A stretch of DNA of 64,000 nt from Paracoccaceae bacterium. Lineage in GTDB: Bacteria; Pseudomonadota; Alphaproteobacteria; Rhodobacterales; Rhodobacteraceae. Numbering within the stretch: the stretch's first letter is position 1; every line of letters begins with the position of its first letter. The notes below the pieces were generated by a model, which made no database searches, had not been told where the DNA came from, and was given only the letters and a program-made list of their open reading frames with translations. Both the position numbers and the translations under genes were made by a program. Location of the stretch: contig OY729418.1 in NCBI GenBank assembly GCA_963422275.1, positions 839,750-903,749 of the forward strand, in the 5' to 3' direction. Positions 44,093 through 56,382 of this stretch are shown piece after piece.

Positions 44093-45763
44093 CTATTTCT
44101 GCTCGGTCTCGGCACTCTCGTTCGAGATCGCCTTCACGCCAGCGGATCCCTTCGCATCCTTCATCCCGCTGCCCATGGAAAGGCCAAGCTCCTCGCCGAG
44201 CGTCTTCAATGCCGGTAGCTGAACGGCCATTCCGAGAATCGAGTCCAGCGCCTGGTTCACGGGCGTCTTGGTGTTTTCGTCTCCGCCCGTGGCGCTCCCG
44301 AGGCCGGATACGTTGTGAATCCTGATCGAGTCGATGCGTTCCGCTGGCTTGACCATCTCGGCGAGCGCCTTTGGCAAGACTTCGATCCGCGCGATCTCCT
44401 CCTTCATCTCGATCAGGCGTGCATCAAGCGCGTTTTCAGCCTCATGCAACGCCCTGCTACCCTCAGCCTCCGCAAGCAAGGCTTCCCGTTTCGCGGCTGC
44501 CCTCTCCCGTTCGGAATCCGCCTCGGCTTTTGCAGCATGCAGGCGCGCCTCCGCATGGTAGACGGACGCATCCTTCTCGGCCTTGGCCAAGGTCAGCAGG
44601 CGGGTGCCGTCAGCTTCAGCCTTTTGTTCGGCATCGAGCAACGCCAGCATCTTGTTGCGCTCCGCCTCGGCCTGCCGGTGCGCTGTCACTATTGACGCTT
44701 CAGCCCTCGCCGCTTCCGCGCGGGCAAGGTCTGCGGCGGCCTTTGCCGCGCTTTCCGTCTCGGCCTTCTTGGCGATGGCGATGTGACGTTCCTGCTGCTG
44801 AACCTGAAGGTCGCGCTCCTTGGCGATCTCCGCGGCCTGGATTTCCAGATCGCGCATGATTTCGACCGCTCTCACTGCTTGGTTGCAGGCAACCTCAGCC
44901 TCCCTTATCGATTGATCCTTTGCAATTCGCGCGGCCTCGGACTCCTCCTCCGCCGTCGCCCGTCGTCGCGCGATCTCTGCGGACTGGGCAGCGCGCAATG
45001 TCTCAATTTCCTGCTGCTGGCTTATTCTTGCCTGCTCCTCGTCCTGCTCGATCTCCAGCTTGCGGCGCGTGGCCTCCATTGAGGACAAGCGTACCGACAC
45101 CTCCGCGTCGGCGTCGATCGCCGCCCGCTCTTTCTTGGATTTTGCGATCACCTCCGCCAGCTTTCTCATTCCGACCGCATTGAACGCGTTGTTCTCGTCC
45201 AGCGTGGCAAACGGCGTTTGATCGAGTGATGTCAGGGACACGGACTGCACCCGGATCCCGTTTTCGGCGAGGTCGGCGGTGATCAGGCCGCGAACTGACC
45301 TGACAAATTCGGCGCGCCCTTCATGAACCTCGTCCATCGTCATTTGCGCGGCGATTGCCCGCAGCGCGTCCACAAGCTTGCCTTCGATGATTTCGCGCAG
45401 CTTGTCGGCGTTGAAGGTTCGGTCTCCCAAGGTCTGGGCTGCCTTGGACACCGCATCGGAATTGGCCTCCACCGCAACGGAAAAACTGGCCCCAATGTCC
45501 ATCCGGAGACGGTCCTTCGTGATCAGGCTTTCCTCCCCGGAGCGTTTCACCTCGAGCCGAAGCGTGCGCATGTTGATCTCGGTCACGTCATGAAAATACG
45601 GCAACGCGACCGCGCCGCCTGCCATGATAACCTTTTGCCCGCCGACGCCTGTCCTGATCAGGCTTACTTCCCGTGTCGCCTTTCGATAGAGCCTCGCCAG
45701 CACGACGATCACGGCAATGGCCACAACGACGGCGCTTGTTGCTGCCGCCCAGAATCCAGACAT
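44093..45763 (-). CDS. flotillin-like SPFH/band-7 protein (YqiK-type)
   Basis: 556-aa ORF with an N-terminal TM helix, an SPFH domain and a long Ala/Glu-rich coiled-coil (..AEAERNKMLALLDAEQKAEADG..). Confidence 0.85.
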   Translation of the reverse strand: MSGFWAAATSAVVVAIAVIVVLARLYRKATREVSLIRTGVGGQKVIMAGGAVALPYFHDVTEINMRTLRLEVKRSGEESLITKDRLRMDIGASFSVAVEANSDAVSKAAQTLGDRTFNADKLREIIEGKLVDALRAIAAQMTMDEVHEGRAEFVRSVRGLITADLAENGIRVQSVSLTSLDQTPFATLDENNAFNAVGMRKLAEVIAKSKKERAAIDADAEVSVRLSSMEATRRKLEIEQDEEQARISQQQEIETLRAAQSAEIARRRATAEEESEAARIAKDQSIREAEVACNQAVRAVEIMRDLEIQAAEIAKERDLQVQQQERHIAIAKKAETESAAKAAADLARAEAARAEASIVTAHRQAEAERNKMLALLDAEQKAEADGTRLLTLAKAEKDASVYHAEARLHAAKAEADSERERAAAKREALLAEAEGSRALHEAENALDARLIEMKEEIARIEVLPKALAEMVKPAERIDSIRIHNVSGLGSATGGDENTKTPVNQALDSILGMAVQLPALKTLGEELGLSMGSGMKDAKGSAGVKAISNESAETEQK

Positions 45764-45957: not shown

Positions 45958-47877
45958 TCATTGCTTTCTCGCCAACACGAAGTCATACTCCACGCAATGG
46001 CACGGTGAAGGAGCCATCTTTCCGTCAGGAAAGCGCAGATTGGATCTCTTTTGGAACGGCATGATCAGGCTCTGCTTCACGCCAAATACGGGATCGCTAT
46101 CGAGAAATTCGTCGCCCTCAATGAAAAGCATCGTGGTCAGCCGATTGAACCCCGGAGCCTCAATCCGGACATGCACATGCCCGGGCCTCATCGGCGACCG
46201 GCTTGCAGATTTCAACAACAGGCCAACTGTTCCGTCATCCGGAATCGGGTAACTTGTCGGCATGATCGAGGTAAACCAAAAGCGCCCATGATCGTCGCTT
46301 CGGAACAGGCCGCGAAGCGCCTGGCCTTCCCGGCCAGGCATCATGATGTCATACGAACCGTCGTCGTCGGAATGCCAGATGTCGACCTTGGCCCCGTGGA
46401 CCGGATTGCCTTCCGTATCCAGCACCCTTGCGTTGAAGTACAGGGGATCACCCTTGATTCCACTGGAAATGTCCGCGCCGTTCTCGAAACTCGCACGTTC
46501 CTCCACATAAAACGGTCCCAAAACCGAGTTTTCCGTGGCGCCGTCCGGAAATCGGTTGTTGATCAGGTCGACCCGGGCTGTGGCCCCCATCACGTCCGAA
46601 AAGAGCATGAATTCCTGTCGACCATCCTTGCAAAGATGGCCGGTTTTGGTCAAGAAATCGATCCCCCACTCCCACTCCTCCTCGGTTGGTTCGATCTCCT
46701 CAAGAAAAGCGTGCAAGTGGCGGGCAAACGCGTTCATTACCTTTTTCGCTCTCGGCGCAGGGGCGTTCTTCATCGTTGCGAGAACGGCGTTGGTGAGATT
46801 CTCCTCTCTGATGTCGCGCCCGTGGCCATCATGCGCTCGGACCGGCGCGGGCGAAGGCTCATCCGCAGACTTTTCGGCATAAAACTCCATTACGAACTCC
46901 GATGGCGGGTTCCCCGGCCAATGTATCACGGCCTCGCGAAACGCTTCGCGGCTGAACAGGCGGCTGGCGTAGCCCGCGACATTAAGACGTTCCATTTTGT
47001 TGAGCGGGTGACCGCCTGCCCACGCGAACTCCATTCCGAGCCATTTCAGCCGGAACAAGCTTACGGACCAATGGATGTCCGCAAGCGTGAAAGTGTCGGC
47101 GCAAATCCATTCCCGGCCATCGGCAAGGCGATTGTCCAGATCTGCCACGGCCGCGAGTATCTCGTTCGTCGCGTCGATCATCATGGATGGCGTGCGAACG
47201 TAGCTTCGTGCGGCGGCCTCCTTCCGTATCTTGGCGTCGTATGCAGCAATGAGGTCGGAACGGCCCACTGCCAAGGATCGCCCTTCCATCAGTTTCATTA
47301 TCTTGTAGTCATGCACTCTGGGCATGCTTTCCTGCAGCTTCTTCGGGCGAAAATCCCCCTCTGGATGCGCCCCGTACAGCACCGCAACGTGAGGCGTGCC
47401 ATCCACTATCGCCACTTCCCGGTCTATTTCCCCTCTGAGGCGGCTTGGCGCCAGATCGGGTCCGCCGCCGCAAACGCGGTTGATGTGCTCGCAGATGGCA
47501 CGGCTGTCGACAAGCACCTGCCCGATTTCATGGTCAACCAAGGTCGGGACCACGCAAGGATCGAAGCCTTCTGTCGAAATCGAGGAGCGACCCGTGTACC
47601 CATTGACCATTTCTCGGCCAGTCCCGCCCCGCATCCGAAGGCGAACATAATCGGGATGATAATTCTCCATGCTTGGCGGCAGAATCCCGATGTCATGACT
47701 GATATACGCAGCTCGTTTCTCGGCCAGCGAGGTTCGCACCTTGTGCGAGCAGATTGACAAGGCGAAGTGGTAGAGTTCAAGGCGGCGCGGGCCCGTTCCG
47801 ATCAGGCGATTTCGCGCCGGGTCCGCAAGCGGCACGTTTGCAGCGGCAACAATTCCCTCCAAAGACTGGTCCAGCAT
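45958..47877 (-). CDS. fusion protein: N-terminal GST-fold (PcpC/zeta-like reductive dehalogenase-type) domain plus C-terminal intradiol ring-cleavage dioxygenase (hydroxyquinol/catechol 1,2-dioxygenase-type)
   Basis: 639-aa ORF with an AAGGAGGAA ribosome-binding site. The N-terminal part has LYHFALSICSHKVR, NYHPDYVRL, VPTLV and ADIHWSV. The C-terminal part has DIWHSDDDGSYD and MRPGHVHVRI (Fe-ligand region). The plus-strand 568-aa ORF is antisense. Confidence 0.8.
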   Translation of the reverse strand: MLDQSLEGIVAAANVPLADPARNRLIGTGPRRLELYHFALSICSHKVRTSLAEKRAAYISHDIGILPPSMENYHPDYVRLRMRGGTGREMVNGYTGRSSISTEGFDPCVVPTLVDHEIGQVLVDSRAICEHINRVCGGGPDLAPSRLRGEIDREVAIVDGTPHVAVLYGAHPEGDFRPKKLQESMPRVHDYKIMKLMEGRSLAVGRSDLIAAYDAKIRKEAAARSYVRTPSMMIDATNEILAAVADLDNRLADGREWICADTFTLADIHWSVSLFRLKWLGMEFAWAGGHPLNKMERLNVAGYASRLFSREAFREAVIHWPGNPPSEFVMEFYAEKSADEPSPAPVRAHDGHGRDIREENLTNAVLATMKNAPAPRAKKVMNAFARHLHAFLEEIEPTEEEWEWGIDFLTKTGHLCKDGRQEFMLFSDVMGATARVDLINNRFPDGATENSVLGPFYVEERASFENGADISSGIKGDPLYFNARVLDTEGNPVHGAKVDIWHSDDDGSYDIMMPGREGQALRGLFRSDDHGRFWFTSIMPTSYPIPDDGTVGLLLKSASRSPMRPGHVHVRIEAPGFNRLTTMLFIEGDEFLDSDPVFGVKQSLIMPFQKRSNLRFPDGKMAPSPCHCVEYDFVLARKQ

Positions 47878-48677
47878 TCCATTCCTCCTTGAATTACGCC
47901 GCAGCTCTGTTGATTAAAGTGCACGCGCCATTCACATGGGATGACAGGATATGCCCAAATCATGGCCCTTTCAAGTTTGACTGGCACCTTCATGATCGAT
48001 CGTTACAATACGCAACTCTCCGCGATGCCAAGGTGCCGTCTCCAAGTCGTCCGCCCGGCCAGTTTCCCGAGATTGCGCCGCTACCGAACATCGTCGACGA
48101 GACGATCAAGGGCACAAAGGAATCCTGGTCCGGGAACATTGAGAACATTGCAACTTGCTCCAGCTACGCTGTCATGTCGAAACGAATTCGGTGACAGCGG
48201 CCTGAATGGCAATGGCATTCACTTGACAATTTGGCGTCGATTCCTTCAGGAGCCACGCTTTTCCCTATGGGAAGTCCTGCCTTCCAGTTGTGAATCCAGC
48301 AGCACCGTGCTTTCGTCCGCACCCCTCTTGCTATATTCCCTGACCAGCTATGCGACCGTCTCGGGCAAAGCTCACGTCCGCCCGCTCCACAATCCAAGAT
48401 ATCGTCGCGCCAGTATCGAGCAACTGCTCTTGAAATCGGTCTGCAGTTTCTCGTCTCCGGCCGTCCGCAGCGCTTCCGGCGCTTGCCTTGAGATATTGCA
48501 CAACGCCGCGTTGCTCCGTCTCGCGTGATGCAGGTCGAACAGCTTTGCCAATTGGAAGCCGGACCCACCAATTGCTGAATGCCATTGGCCTGCAAGGGTG
48601 CCCGGCAGCACTGGCAGAGAATCGAGTGAACGGCGCAACAAAGAAGGTTGCGAAACGAACATCGATCATGGACAGAC

Positions 48678-49057
48678 GCACTGTCAGGCCTTGGAGTTTG
48701 TCTGACGTTCAGTTGGGAAAGCGCCGGATAGATTTCTTCATGGCGATGGTTGCCAGGCGCGTGGCCCCAAAAAATGCGCTTCGCAAGGTGAATGCCTGGT
48801 GTACTGGCCACGGCGGGCGTGAGTCATGGGTGCCGCGGCACCGAGACGGAACTGAACCTCAAGGTGGTGATTCTGACTCGCTCAAGGCCGCCGAAGCGGA
48901 TTGACCAAGCTCCAGCCTGAGCGCTGGAGTCTGTCCCGTGCGGGCAGAGCCTGCGTGCCTGAAACTGCGAACGCCCGCGCCAAACCATTTCCGGCGGAGC
49001 CAGAACTGGTTCCGAAAACCGCAAAAGCGCGCATCAGGCGGCTCTCGCAACGGTCTT
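48678..49057 (+). mobile_element. MITE-like internal-deletion derivative of the IS5-family 'type B' element
   Basis: The 5' part ..RRIDFFMAMVARRVAPKNALRKVNAW matches MDFFVMAAAERVDRNSALRKV of 21632. The 3' tail ..CTGGAGTCTGTCCC..CTGAAAC..CGCAACGGTCTT matches the tails at 22385 and 56030. Confidence 0.6.
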
Positions 49058-49185
49058 CAGCATTAAATTGTTTCAGCTAATTCGACAGTCACTCGCAAAT
49101 CAAGATCAGATACTGCTCCTTGCGCACCATGTGCGCTTGCACTAGAGTCAGCACCAAGATCCCAGCAGAACTTGTGCCTCGCAGA

Positions 49186-49515
49186 ATGCTAAACATGAGA
49201 GTGCCCCTGATTTTGACTTGCTTGGTTGCTGCCACTGCGAGTCCTGTAACGGCGGATTTGAAATCTTTCGGCGGAAAAGAGTTCGGCATTGTCCCTCGAC
49301 AAGGCATGATCGCGTGCGTTCCAGAAAGATCGGAAACTACCGCCTGCCCAAAGCAGCGATCATCGGAAGGTGACCGCAACGCACTTTCCGCAAAGGGGCG
49401 CTTGCCGCTCCGCGTTTCGGGCGTAGCCAAGATGGGAGTGAGCTATAACGGTGACAATTGGCATACAGTCCGCCAGTTCAACATCAGATTCCATTTTTCC
49501 GGAACGATCGACTGA
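49186..49515 (+). CDS. hypothetical small secreted protein
   Basis: Signal-peptide-like start (MLNMRVPLILTCLVAATASPVTA). There is no clear ribosome-binding site, and it sits between two mobile-element remnants. Confidence 0.3.
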   Translation: MLNMRVPLILTCLVAATASPVTADLKSFGGKEFGIVPRQGMIACVPERSETTACPKQRSSEGDRNALSAKGRLPLRVSGVAKMGVSYNGDNWHTVRQFNIRFHFSGTID

Positions 49516-49653
49516 TGGCTTCGCTTCGTTTACCCGCGGTTGGCGATTTCACTTGCAAAGCCCGTCTGCCGTGAATCGACTGCTGACAGTCCGGGCATCT
49601 CATGCCGTCGTCGGGTAGCCGCCGTGCATTCGAATGGGAATTATATACGGGTT

Positions 49654-50322
49654 CTAACCAAGCAGGTCTAGAAGCTGACTCCGAATCGGCTCGATCTTGA
49701 TCAACTCGGACAGCAGAAACTCCACGTTGTCGGGGCCGTCAGCACGACGCGTTTCGACAATTTCATCGTAGTCGATCTCCAGAAGTTCACAGAACTCGCG
49801 GCCGGTCATTGCCTCTTCGAAGGCGATCTTCCGTTTAAAGCCGTCCCATATCGCTTGCCGGCCACTCTGATTAAAGGCGCAGAAGTGCGCTTGGAACCGA
49901 TACTGGATGTGCGGTGCGGTGCGCTCGATGAACCCGTGCATAGCTTGGTGTTCCGCACTGGCCTTTTTGGTATCGAACACATGACCATCCTTCAGCTCGA
50001 CGATATGGCAGTTCTGCACGCCGCCGCGGCGCTTGAACACCATGAAGTCCGGTTCCGATCCGGCGAAGTCCAAGGTAGCACTATGCTTGATCTGACGTTT
50101 GCGGGCAAGCAACACGCCCTCGGGCATGATCTCCTGTTCGAGAAAAGCGTCTAGGTTTGGGATGTTCGGCACCAAGGCCGCGATCATCTTCTCCAGTTCC
50201 GACCCCGATGAGATCACGGCGGACTGTACCTTGCTGACAAGTTCGCCGAGTGCAGCGTTGCCAAACAGGCGTTCGTAGGAGCCTGATGTGTTCTTGGGTT
50301 TGGCGTCCCGAAGTCGAGCCAT
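49654..50322 (-). CDS. putative type II restriction endonuclease (PD-(D/E)xK)
   Basis: 222-aa ORF, 4 bp downstream of the methyltransferase gene. It has a candidate catalytic motif ..EPDFMVF..(17 aa)..VELKDG.. . Its stop codon abuts the left inverted repeat. Confidence 0.6.
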   Translation of the reverse strand: MARLRDAKPKNTSGSYERLFGNAALGELVSKVQSAVISSGSELEKMIAALVPNIPNLDAFLEQEIMPEGVLLARKRQIKHSATLDFAGSEPDFMVFKRRGGVQNCHIVELKDGHVFDTKKASAEHQAMHGFIERTAPHIQYRFQAHFCAFNQSGRQAIWDGFKRKIAFEEAMTGREFCELLEIDYDEIVETRRADGPDNVEFLLSELIKIEPIRSQLLDLLG

Positions 50323-55140: not shown

Positions 55141-55141
55141 A

Positions 55142-55947
55142 GGTCGTGGACTCATTGATTTTGATCCAGAGGCGGATGCAGGCAAGGGCGATTGCGGCGA
55201 GGAAGTTTCTTGCGAGCTTGTGATGGCGGGTCGCGATGCCTCGGAAGTGCTTGAGCTTGTTGAAGAAGCGTTCGACGAGGTTGCGCTGGCGGTACAGGTG
55301 ATCGGGCACCGAGCGCTGCTCCCGGCGGTCCCGTTGGGTCGGGATGTGGGGGCAAGAGCCATGGTCAGCGACGGTGTCCCGGGCCGGCTCAAGGCCGTCA
55401 AGGAGGGCCGGCACGGCAGCCTTGTCGGAGGCTTGGCCCGGAGTGAGCACGAAGCGGCGCGGCAGGCCAAGGCCGTCGACGACGACGTGGATTTTGGTGC
55501 TCAACCCGCCTCGCGAGCGTCCGATGGCGTGATCCGGACCCCCTTTTTTCCGCCCGCGGCGTGCTGGTGGGCGCACACCACCGAGGCGTCGAGGAAATGA
55601 AGAGACCCCGGCGAGCCCGTCGCCAGCGCCCCGAACAGGCGCTCCCGCACCCCTTGCCTGGCCCCGCGGTTGCAGCGGTTGCAGACTGTCGCATGCGGCC
55701 CGCAGCGTTCCGGAAGGTCGCGCCACGGCGTGCCGGTGCGCAGGATGTGAAAGATCCCGCTGATCGCCCGCCGGTCGTCCACCCGTGGAACGCCCCGCGG
55801 CTTGTCAGGCGGCAACGGCGAGATGATCGCCCATTCCGCATCCGTCAGATCGTGCCGTCCCTGCATCCTCAATCTCCCACTGTTTGGAAGCTTGAATCAC
55901 ATCAGAGCCGGAAAGAAAATCCCTTTTCCCTTTATGAGTACAGGACC
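55142..55947 (-). mobile_element. IS427-group element, copy 3 (most complete; two overlapping ORFs with A-AAA-AAG slippery site)
   Basis: orfA is 55501..55872 and orfB is the in-IS part of 54947..55726. GGAAAAAAGGGGG on the minus strand (55541-55553) gives ..AGGKKG (frame 0) or ..KKGGPDHAIGRSRGG (frame -1). Ends are GGTCGTGGACTCAT / ATGAGTACAGGACC. Confidence 0.85.
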
Positions 55948-56382
55948 TGGCCGTGGAGACGGAAACGGCACTGAAGGCAATGGCGCTTGACCTGCTCAAG
56001 GCGGCCAGCCGGATCGAGCTTGCTGTGACCTGAGAGCCGGAGTCTGTCTGGAACTTGCCCGATGCGGTGCATCGGGGGCTGAAACCGCGCCTTTGGGCGC
56101 CAAGGTCGCTACCGGAAGGCACTGCAGCCACCGCCAAGCGCGCAATTAGCTCCAGACGGCGAAATGCGGAGAAAAGCGCCCGCTTCCGCAACAGTTTTGT
56201 CTTCAAATTAAAGTTCCTGCACGAGTCTCTTGCCTTGCTGGAACATGCCGGAGCGAATGAAAAAGGCGGTGATGACAAGGTGCAACTTCAACATTTGCAA
56301 TTGCGGAAAGCGCAATGGCGGATTATTGTCTGGAAATCAAAACAAGAACAAACGTCATAGGCAGTGAGGCAGTTTCGGGACA

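Follow-up and report, generated by a model that had tools for sequence, protein, structure and literature searches.

The question raised by this locus is what is gained by joining, in one protein, a glutathione S-transferase (GST) domain of the reductive dehalogenase type and a dioxygenase that cleaves aromatic rings. The gene lies in the window, by which we mean the whole stretch of 64,000 nucleotides from a Paracoccaceae bacterium that was analysed (contig OY729418.1, positions 839,750 to 903,749). It occupies positions 45958..47877 on the minus strand and encodes a complete protein of 639 amino acids, a LinD-like GST followed by a hydroxyquinol 1,2-dioxygenase (GST::dioxygenase), as judged from the open reading frame (ORF), Pfam and PDB matches and about 50 homologous sequence clusters. 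The reading that we favour, with a probability of about 0.6, is that the protein is cytoplasmic and bifunctional and catalyses the final aromatic steps of a hydroxyquinol-type catabolism, in which a glutathione-dependent dehalogenation or reduction is followed by ring cleavage. Both domains and the logic of the pathway are already known; what is new is their joining in one protein.

An earlier note on this DNA had proposed a single polypeptide made up of a GST and an intradiol dioxygenase, and this is borne out by the reading frame, which runs from an ATG start to a stop codon at 45958-45960 with no internal stop and whose translation contains every motif quoted at the time (LYHFALSICSHKVR, NYHPDYVRL, VPTLV, ADIHWSV, DIWHSDDDGSYD and MRPGHVHVRI). 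The ATG is preceded, at a distance of 5 nt, by a strong Shine-Dalgarno sequence, AAGGAGGA, at 47883..47890 on the minus strand. The N-terminal half (residues 20-334; 46876..47820, minus strand) carries the features expected of the LinD family, namely S41-x-C43 within FALSICSHKVR, a cis-proline motif VPTL at residues 110-113, and D124-S125. In pairwise comparison it was 45% identical to LinD of Sphingobium UT26 (E 8e-89), residues 20-334 matching LinD residues 32-344 of 346, and FALSICSHKVR aligned with FVFSVCSQKVR of LinD, S41-I-C43 standing opposite S-V-C. Eight annotated linD genes on plasmids were also matched by this half in a tblastn search, at 44.7% identity (E ~1e-78). The GST fold claimed by the earlier note was upheld by domain hidden Markov models (HMMs): GST_N_2 matched residues 41-134 with 31.8 bits (cut-off 25) and GST_C_2 residues 236-291 with 24.1 bits, slightly below the cut-off of 24.9. 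The best solved relatives found by PDB search are GDAP1 structures (residues 31-319, E 6e-10), and the AlphaFold (AF2) model of this half has the expected beta-alpha and helical elements, with a predicted local distance difference test score (pLDDT) mostly above 90. The more specific assignment to PcpC and zeta-like GSTs holds in part. The domain is of the GST reductive dehalogenase type and its Ser-x-Cys motif is kept, but it is LinD-sized (about 340 amino acids) and reached only 13.6 bits with the zeta-class model TIGR01262 (maiA), for which the cut-off is 171. A glutathione synthetase gene is present in the window's genome.

Conservation within the fusion family gives some indication of which residues matter. 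Ser41 is found in all 29 fusion proteins compared, and there is little or no variation in the VPTL motif and at Asp124. Cys43 is present in 23 of the 29. The members that do not have it (P0031, P0035, P0037, P0043, P0050 and P0051 of alignment A1) have no Lys46 either, and Ser125 is also missing from five of these six. Cys43, Lys46 and Ser125 thus form a co-varying triad in the region of the GST active site and are, by this pattern, one functional unit, which the protein in the window retains complete.

The C-terminal half (residues 356-639; 45961..46812, minus strand) was described in the earlier note as a complete intradiol dioxygenase core of the hydroxyquinol type, and here there is nothing to correct. 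Dioxygenase_N (residues 375-447, 83.6 bits) and Dioxygenase_C (residues 454-636, 117 bits) both matched far above their cut-offs, and the five top PDB matches are all hydroxyquinol 1,2-dioxygenases (1tmx, 8r2x, 8r2v, 8r2w and 3n9t, at 218-260 bits), whereas catechol and chlorocatechol dioxygenase structures gave no more than 112 bits. Identity to 1TMX is 45% (E 4.5e-76). The segments GSYD, SYPIP and GHVHV align with the iron-ligand motifs GFYD, YPIP and HLHF of that structure, and Tyr509, Tyr543, His567 and His569 are the predicted Fe(III) ligands, all four of which are retained in 28 of the 29 family members. The NCBIfam equivalog models for catechol and chlorocatechol dioxygenases all scored far under their cut-offs for this half. 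A Foldseek search by fold again returned only hydroxyquinol dioxygenases as top matches, recovering the dioxygenase half alone. One member of the fusion family, P0053, has replaced three of its four iron ligands (Y>F, Y>E and H>N) and retains Ser41 and Cys43 in its GST half.

Between the two domains lies a poorly conserved linker (residues 335-355; 46813..46875, minus strand) that is predicted to be disordered, some 16 residues of it (336-351) having a pLDDT below 50 in the AlphaFold model. Identity to homologs is 46-74% in the GST half and 43-80% in the dioxygenase half, and falls to 24-43% in the linker; by sequence conservation, both halves of the fusion are under constraint. The monomer model as a whole has a pLDDT of 85 and a predicted template modelling score (pTM) of 0.58, with the orientation of the domains to each other left undefined. 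Given the disordered linker and this pTM, the model says nothing on whether the two active sites face each other.

The fusion is rare, patchy and alphaproteobacterial. A word-indexed search found about 50 sequence clusters of the same architecture, 625-653 amino acids in length and 48-73% identical, and a 99% identical copy lies on a separate contig of 158 kb. In an exhaustive HMMER search of 1.84 billion representatives, one match spans both halves and the remaining matches cover a single half. We also scanned 185,579 species genomes and considered the best 80 loci, of which about 13, all from species-representative genomes of Alphaproteobacteria, hold a full-length fusion gene in one frame. 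The carriers among these loci are Boseongicola, Albidovulum, Silicimonas, Paracoccaceae, Hyphomicrobiales and metagenome-assembled genomes (MAGs) of the 'Rhizobiaceae group'; Thetidibacter halocola is a further carrier. Of the 36 further genera sampled from the window's own family, a single one carries the fusion, in the Albidovulum MAG of locus L018 (family Paracoccaceae). The earlier note had asked whether the frame might conceal two genes and whether the architecture might be common and already characterised. The frame proved to be continuous here and in the 13 species-representative genomes, and the literature searched contained no published description of a GST fused to a hydroxyquinol dioxygenase. 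In public databases the members of the family are annotated in general terms only, for instance as 'dioxygenase', 'GST C-terminal domain-containing protein' or 'hydroxyquinol 1,2-dioxygenase'. Name prefixes of several carrier MAGs (RHO, IRC, SB) hint at a sponge origin, which could not be confirmed in the text of PMC8163846.

Phylogenetic analysis of each domain led to the same view of its origin. When 91 LinD-like sequences were placed in one tree, the N-domains of the fusions formed one clade (support by the SH-like approximate likelihood ratio test, SH-aLRT, 96), and the rows that appear 'stand-alone' within it are all truncated gene calls; in the tree of dioxygenase domains there is again a single fusion clade (SH-aLRT 99). 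Since both trees give one clade, the fusion, on this evidence, arose once. A stand-alone hydroxyquinol dioxygenase in locus L019 (10022-10882) nevertheless falls inside the fusion clade and shares 88% identity with the C-half of P0046. Only some 240 bp separate it from a divergently oriented gene for an iron-containing alcohol dehydrogenase (Fe-ADH), which leaves no room for a GST half, and this, together with its nesting in the clade, points to an apparent secondary loss of that half. A stand-alone sister clade was considered as a candidate for the state before fusion and set aside: the context of P0058 has no dioxygenase, and the stand-alone LinD-like proteins P0072 and P0084 are in unrelated contexts.

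The surroundings of the gene in related bacteria proved informative in helping to understand its function. In most carriers the order is a divergent LysR gene, an Fe-ADH of the maleylacetate reductase type, a periplasmic binding protein, two ATPases of the ATP-binding cassette (ABC) type, a permease, a second permease joined to a flavin adenine dinucleotide (FAD)-dependent hydroxylase, the GST::dioxygenase fusion, and finally a flotillin gene, the fusion being thus the penultimate gene of the operon. The importer in this conserved operon is a LIV-type ABC transporter. The permease::hydroxylase is itself a fusion of 960-990 amino acids, in which a LivM-type ABC permease (BPD_transp_2) is joined to a phenol hydroxylase of the HbpA/TfdB family (FAD_binding_3 and Rng_hyd_C), so that a subunit of the transporter is covalently attached to the first enzyme of the catabolism; it is found at 2145525-2148494 of contig C1 of the window's genome (8523-11495 of locus L005, minus strand), at L001:7116-10001 and in loci L007-L016. 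Most GST::dioxygenase carriers keep this second fusion; in L003 and L017 permease and hydroxylase are two separate genes. The hydroxylase part matches two enzymes that hydroxylate substituted phenols in the ortho position, 2-hydroxybiphenyl 3-monooxygenase (E 7e-189) and 2,4-dichlorophenol 6-monooxygenase (E 1.5e-158). In the relatives the stop codon of the hydroxylase and the start codon of the GST::dioxygenase gene overlap by 1-4 nt. No further catabolic genes were found flanking the cluster in Boseongicola. Elsewhere, in an unrelated cluster of a Pseudomonadota MAG (L087:6319-9164), the end of a hydroxylase gene with FAD_binding_3 and Rng_hyd_C domains is overlapped at its stop by a LinD-like gene that stands alone; that cluster also contains a glyoxalase-fold dioxygenase, a fumarylacetoacetate (FAA) hydrolase and a second GST, and so has another ring-cleavage route after the hydroxylase-LinD pair.

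The flotillin gene (SPFH/Band_7 and Flot by Pfam) lies in the window at 44093..45763 on the minus strand, 194 bp downstream of the fusion. In each of the 17 loci whose sequence extends that far, a flotillin gene is the next one downstream of the fusion, even when all other genes are rearranged. The flotillins linked to fusions are 69-83% identical across orders and only 56-60% identical to flotillins of genomes from the same family that have no fusion. The higher identity among the former suggests, as far as such comparisons can, that the two genes have been transferred together and are functionally tied.

In the window's genome this operon is broken up, with every enzyme gene intact and the LysR gene lost. 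Only the fusion and flotillin genes still adjoin, at 0.886 Mb. The Fe-ADH, binding protein, ATPase and permease genes and the 990-residue permease::hydroxylase are all intact at 2,145,525-2,153,358, followed by kdtA and lpxK, so that the maleylacetate-reductase-type Fe-ADH, which shares an operon with the fusion in most relatives, is here 1.26 Mb away from it, as are the importer and hydroxylase. No ortholog of the LysR of the cluster was found in the genome and no remnant of it beside the Fe-ADH gene (L005:16444-17122). The earlier view that the gene stands alone therefore describes the window correctly, there being no maleylacetate reductase or LysR gene nearby, but does not hold for the relatives, where the fusion is in an operon, nor for the rest of this genome, where its partners survive. 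In Albidovulum the fusion-flotillin pair is also split from the cluster, at a distance of 54 kb. Because the pair has been parted from the cluster in both genomes, it is the most stable unit of the cluster.

Taken together these observations allow a pathway to be proposed, in which the fusion family probably finishes the breakdown of phenolic compounds, possibly halogenated. A phenolic substrate would be imported, and its hydroxylation would give a (halo)hydroxyquinol or the corresponding quinone. In the GST domain the glutathione thiolate would displace a halide or add to the quinone, as in PcpC and DrcA; Cys43 would resolve the S-glutathionyl adduct, and a second glutathione would regenerate the enzyme, leaving a reduced and dehalogenated hydroxyquinol. 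This part of the scheme follows the cysteine-dependent mechanism of the GST-type reductive dehalogenases (PMC3205185, PMC6922536). The tethered dioxygenase would then convert hydroxyquinol to maleylacetate, and the Fe-ADH would reduce this to 3-oxoadipate. The tether may serve to hold an auto-oxidisable and toxic intermediate near its consumer. A catalytic role for the GST half is supported by the invariance of Ser41, the covariation of Cys43, Lys46 and Ser125, the overlap of hydroxylase and LinD-like genes in L087, and the precedents for fusion of this dioxygenase to other enzymes.

Several points weigh against this proposal. The earlier note had taken the two activities to be consecutive in known pathways, which is not the case: linD shares an operon with linE, the gene for a (chloro)hydroquinone dioxygenase that is not of the intradiol type. 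It is LinE, and not an intradiol enzyme, that LinD feeds in the pathways characterised so far, and that the fusion joins two consecutive steps is therefore our own proposal, for which these pathways offer no precedent. LinD also groups with P0091-P0096 (SH-aLRT 99) apart from the clade of fusion N-domains, and since it falls in a different clade the N-half is a member of the LinD family and not an ortholog of LinD. The six members without Cys43, and L019 without the whole GST half, indicate that the GST step is dispensable or altered in some lineages. In other bacteria, hydroxyquinol dioxygenases and maleylacetate reductases deal with chlorohydroxyquinol in the absence of a separate dehalogenase, so that dehalogenation is not strictly required. 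No solved relative of the binding protein of the cluster was found, and hence there is no clue from it to the ligand; the flanking genes gave no hint of the substrate either. Finally, having been separated from the rest of the operon and from its regulator, the fusion gene in the window may have low expression or be in the course of being lost.

The alternative that survives best, although it is clearly the less probable one, is that the GST half acts as a glutathione-dependent 'redox keeper' and no halogen is involved. It would re-reduce 2-hydroxy-1,4-benzoquinone or cleave S-glutathionyl-hydroxyquinol, and so give hydroxyquinol back to the dioxygenase, within a pathway for non-halogenated compounds of the resorcinol, hydroquinone or dihydroxybenzoate type. 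Auto-oxidation of hydroxyquinol yields 2-hydroxy-1,4-benzoquinone, and S-glutathionyl adducts form spontaneously from the quinone. The gene content is in agreement: the cluster has one hydroxylase and no other dehalogenation gene, a gene for a flavin mononucleotide (FMN) quinone reductase lies beside the Thetidibacter cluster, and in L003 a gene of the Amidohydro_2 family, which is presumably the fold of resorcylate decarboxylases, adjoins the importer. TsdC of the resorcylate pathway is, in addition, among the best matches of the dioxygenase half, and PcpC and DrcA carry out just such a cysteine-dependent release from a glutathionyl adduct in their second half-reaction (PMC3205185). On the other hand the closest characterised relative of the N-half, LinD, is a true dechlorinase, and the partner hydroxylase is nearest to enzymes for 2-substituted or chlorinated phenols. 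The sequence itself does not tell the two roles apart.

It is distinctly less likely that the GST half is not catalytic at all and serves as a module for dimerisation, solubility, regulation or docking to the membrane or flotillin, like GDAP1, SspA or Ure2p, with the dioxygenase alone being active. The GDAP1 proteins that are its best solved relatives have weak or undemonstrated enzymatic activity, the GST_C_2 match is marginal, Cys43 and Lys46 are gone from six family members (with Ser125 in five of those) and L019 does without the domain. This is difficult to reconcile with an N-half that is 45% identical to the active LinD with its motif aligned, that keeps the residues of the glutathione site, with Ser41, VPTL and Asp124 unchanged or nearly so, and whose identity within the family is that of many enzymes. 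That the single frame is an artefact of assembly or sequencing, with two adjacent genes in reality, can be dismissed as having next to no probability, because, even if frameshifted calls of this kind exist in databases (P0095, see below), the frame is continuous and repeated in a 99% identical copy on another contig, some 50 clusters from independent assemblies agree in length and architecture, the frame is likewise unbroken in 13 species-representative genomes, and the linker shows no conserved signal of a stop or start codon. P0095 (767 amino acids) consists of an HpaB N-domain, a garbled stretch and a LinD-like N-half, and is probably a frameshifted call in which an HpaB gene and a neighbouring LinD-like gene have been run together.

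The DNA upstream of the fusion gene bears on how the operon came apart. The earlier note had described about 0.8 kb of non-coding or decayed DNA followed by a remnant of an insertion sequence (IS), which agrees with what was found. The 1.8 kb at 47878..49653, which occupy the place of the hydroxylase and transporter genes of the relatives, have no credible gene and no Pfam match; they include, at 48682-48937, a decayed copy of a genome-dispersed repeat that weakly matches (70-85%) dozens of genomic sites, and an IS1595 element with a restriction-modification pair starts at about 49.6 kb. The sole promoter-like match upstream of the fusion, at 47974-47946, is at chance level, and an Rfam search of 47878..49653 gave zero matches. 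An operon pseudogenised in place was ruled out, as tblastn, blastn and tblastx searches of 47878-49700 with the genes of the cluster found no remnants. A traceable IS-mediated break was likewise rejected: the window side has the repeat remnant, but there are no repeats at the junctions of the cluster with kdtA (2.145 Mb) and of DUF1028 (3.718 Mb), and the history of the rearrangement cannot be reconstructed. At ~55141-55950 of the window there is an element of about 600-800 bp, of which the 4.79-Mb genome has over 60 copies that are 90-96% identical; one copy lies 3.5 kb from the transporter and hydroxylase cluster.

In two Albidovulum MAGs the fusion is directly preceded by genes for an HpaB-type hydroxylase, a flavin reductase joined to a LysR substrate domain, and a DUF1028 protein. 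In the window's genome these three genes are at a third site, at 3718333-3722171 of contig C1 (L108:8331-12172), beside a kynureninase gene. We considered the Albidovulum arrangement as the ancestral state and did not adopt it. In the window's genome the trio is at 3.72 Mb; whether it has a functional link with the fusion is uncertain, and we claim none.

To our knowledge LinD and PcpC are known almost solely from pesticide-degrading sphingomonads. The fusion family places a LinD-type domain in a conserved and self-contained operon of marine-type alphaproteobacteria, where it is physically linked to the cleavage of hydroxyquinol. Provided that both halves are active, the fusion would be a natural one-polypeptide answer to an unstable and toxic intermediate, and it would also offer a compact component for use in bioremediation or biocatalysis and point the way to what GST-type dehalogenases act on in nature. 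The second fusion, permease::hydroxylase, and the flotillin partner raise the interest of the system somewhat above that of a plain domain fusion, and the two together make it a tractable one for asking whether bacteria organise catabolism at the membrane. A far-reaching extension, which we put forward as speculation and think unlikely, is that permease::hydroxylase and GST::dioxygenase, with flotillin as a possible scaffold, form an assembly organised at the membrane that passes (halo)quinone and hydroquinone intermediates from import to ring cleavage without release. Its natural substrates could then be phenolics from marine or sponge habitats that carry bromine or chlorine, and the LinD-type domain could mark an unrecognised pathway for natural organohalogens in Rhodobacterales. 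Thetidibacter halocola appears to be culturable, since it is listed as a species or strain-type record and not as a MAG. The copy in the window shows that the operon can scatter in an IS-rich genome while each enzyme gene stays intact.

Comparison with known systems helps to define what is shared and what is peculiar to the fusion. LinD, the 2,5-dichlorohydroquinone reductive dechlorinase of Sphingobium UT26 (plasmid pCHQ1), resembles the N-half in its length of about 340 amino acids and in the motif S-x-C-S-x-K-V-R, and both are members of the GST superfamily and, in the case of the fusion by prediction, users of glutathione; LinD is, however, a stand-alone protein encoded in an operon with LinE, whereas the N-half is joined to an intradiol dioxygenase. 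PcpC, the tetrachlorohydroquinone dehalogenase of Sphingobium chlorophenolicum, is a zeta-like protein of about 250 amino acids. The N-half differs from it in size and in its poor score with the zeta-class model, and LinD is demonstrably the closer relative by sequence, PcpC being judged here through that model and its generally quoted size. What PcpC shares with the proposed mechanism is its GST type and a catalytic cysteine by which the glutathionyl adduct is resolved (PMC3205185, PMC6922536). Another GST fold in which a pocket cysteine makes a reductive dehalogenase, in this instance for a natural halogenated phenolic compound, is that of DrcA, which reductively dechlorinates DIF-1 in Dictyostelium (PMC3205185), but it belongs to the Ure2p-like GST class, is unfused and has no meaningful sequence relationship to the fusion.

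The C-half is 40-45% identical over the full length of the enzyme to the hydroxyquinol dioxygenases of Nocardioides simplex (1TMX) and Rhodococcus jostii (TsdC, 8R2X) and to PnpC (3N9T), and shares with them Dioxygenase_N, Dioxygenase_C and the iron site of two tyrosines and two histidines. These enzymes are stand-alone proteins of about 290 amino acids, whereas the fusion has some 355 extra residues before the N-terminal helical domain, which in hydroxyquinol dioxygenases mediates dimerisation. Fusion of such a dioxygenase to another enzyme has parallels: it is found with a maleylacetate reductase or an FAA hydrolase at its N-terminus and with an FAD hydroxylase at its C-terminus. Among our sequences such proteins are P0105, P0139, P0144, P0196, P0112, P0209, P0182 and P0090, several of them with an Fe-ADH, one with an FAA hydrolase and one with an FAD phenol hydroxylase. 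The best 150 matches, taken as representatives at 50% identity, include at least 5 or 6 fusions to maleylacetate reductase as against one of the LinD type, and the partner is mostly N-terminal, as it is here.

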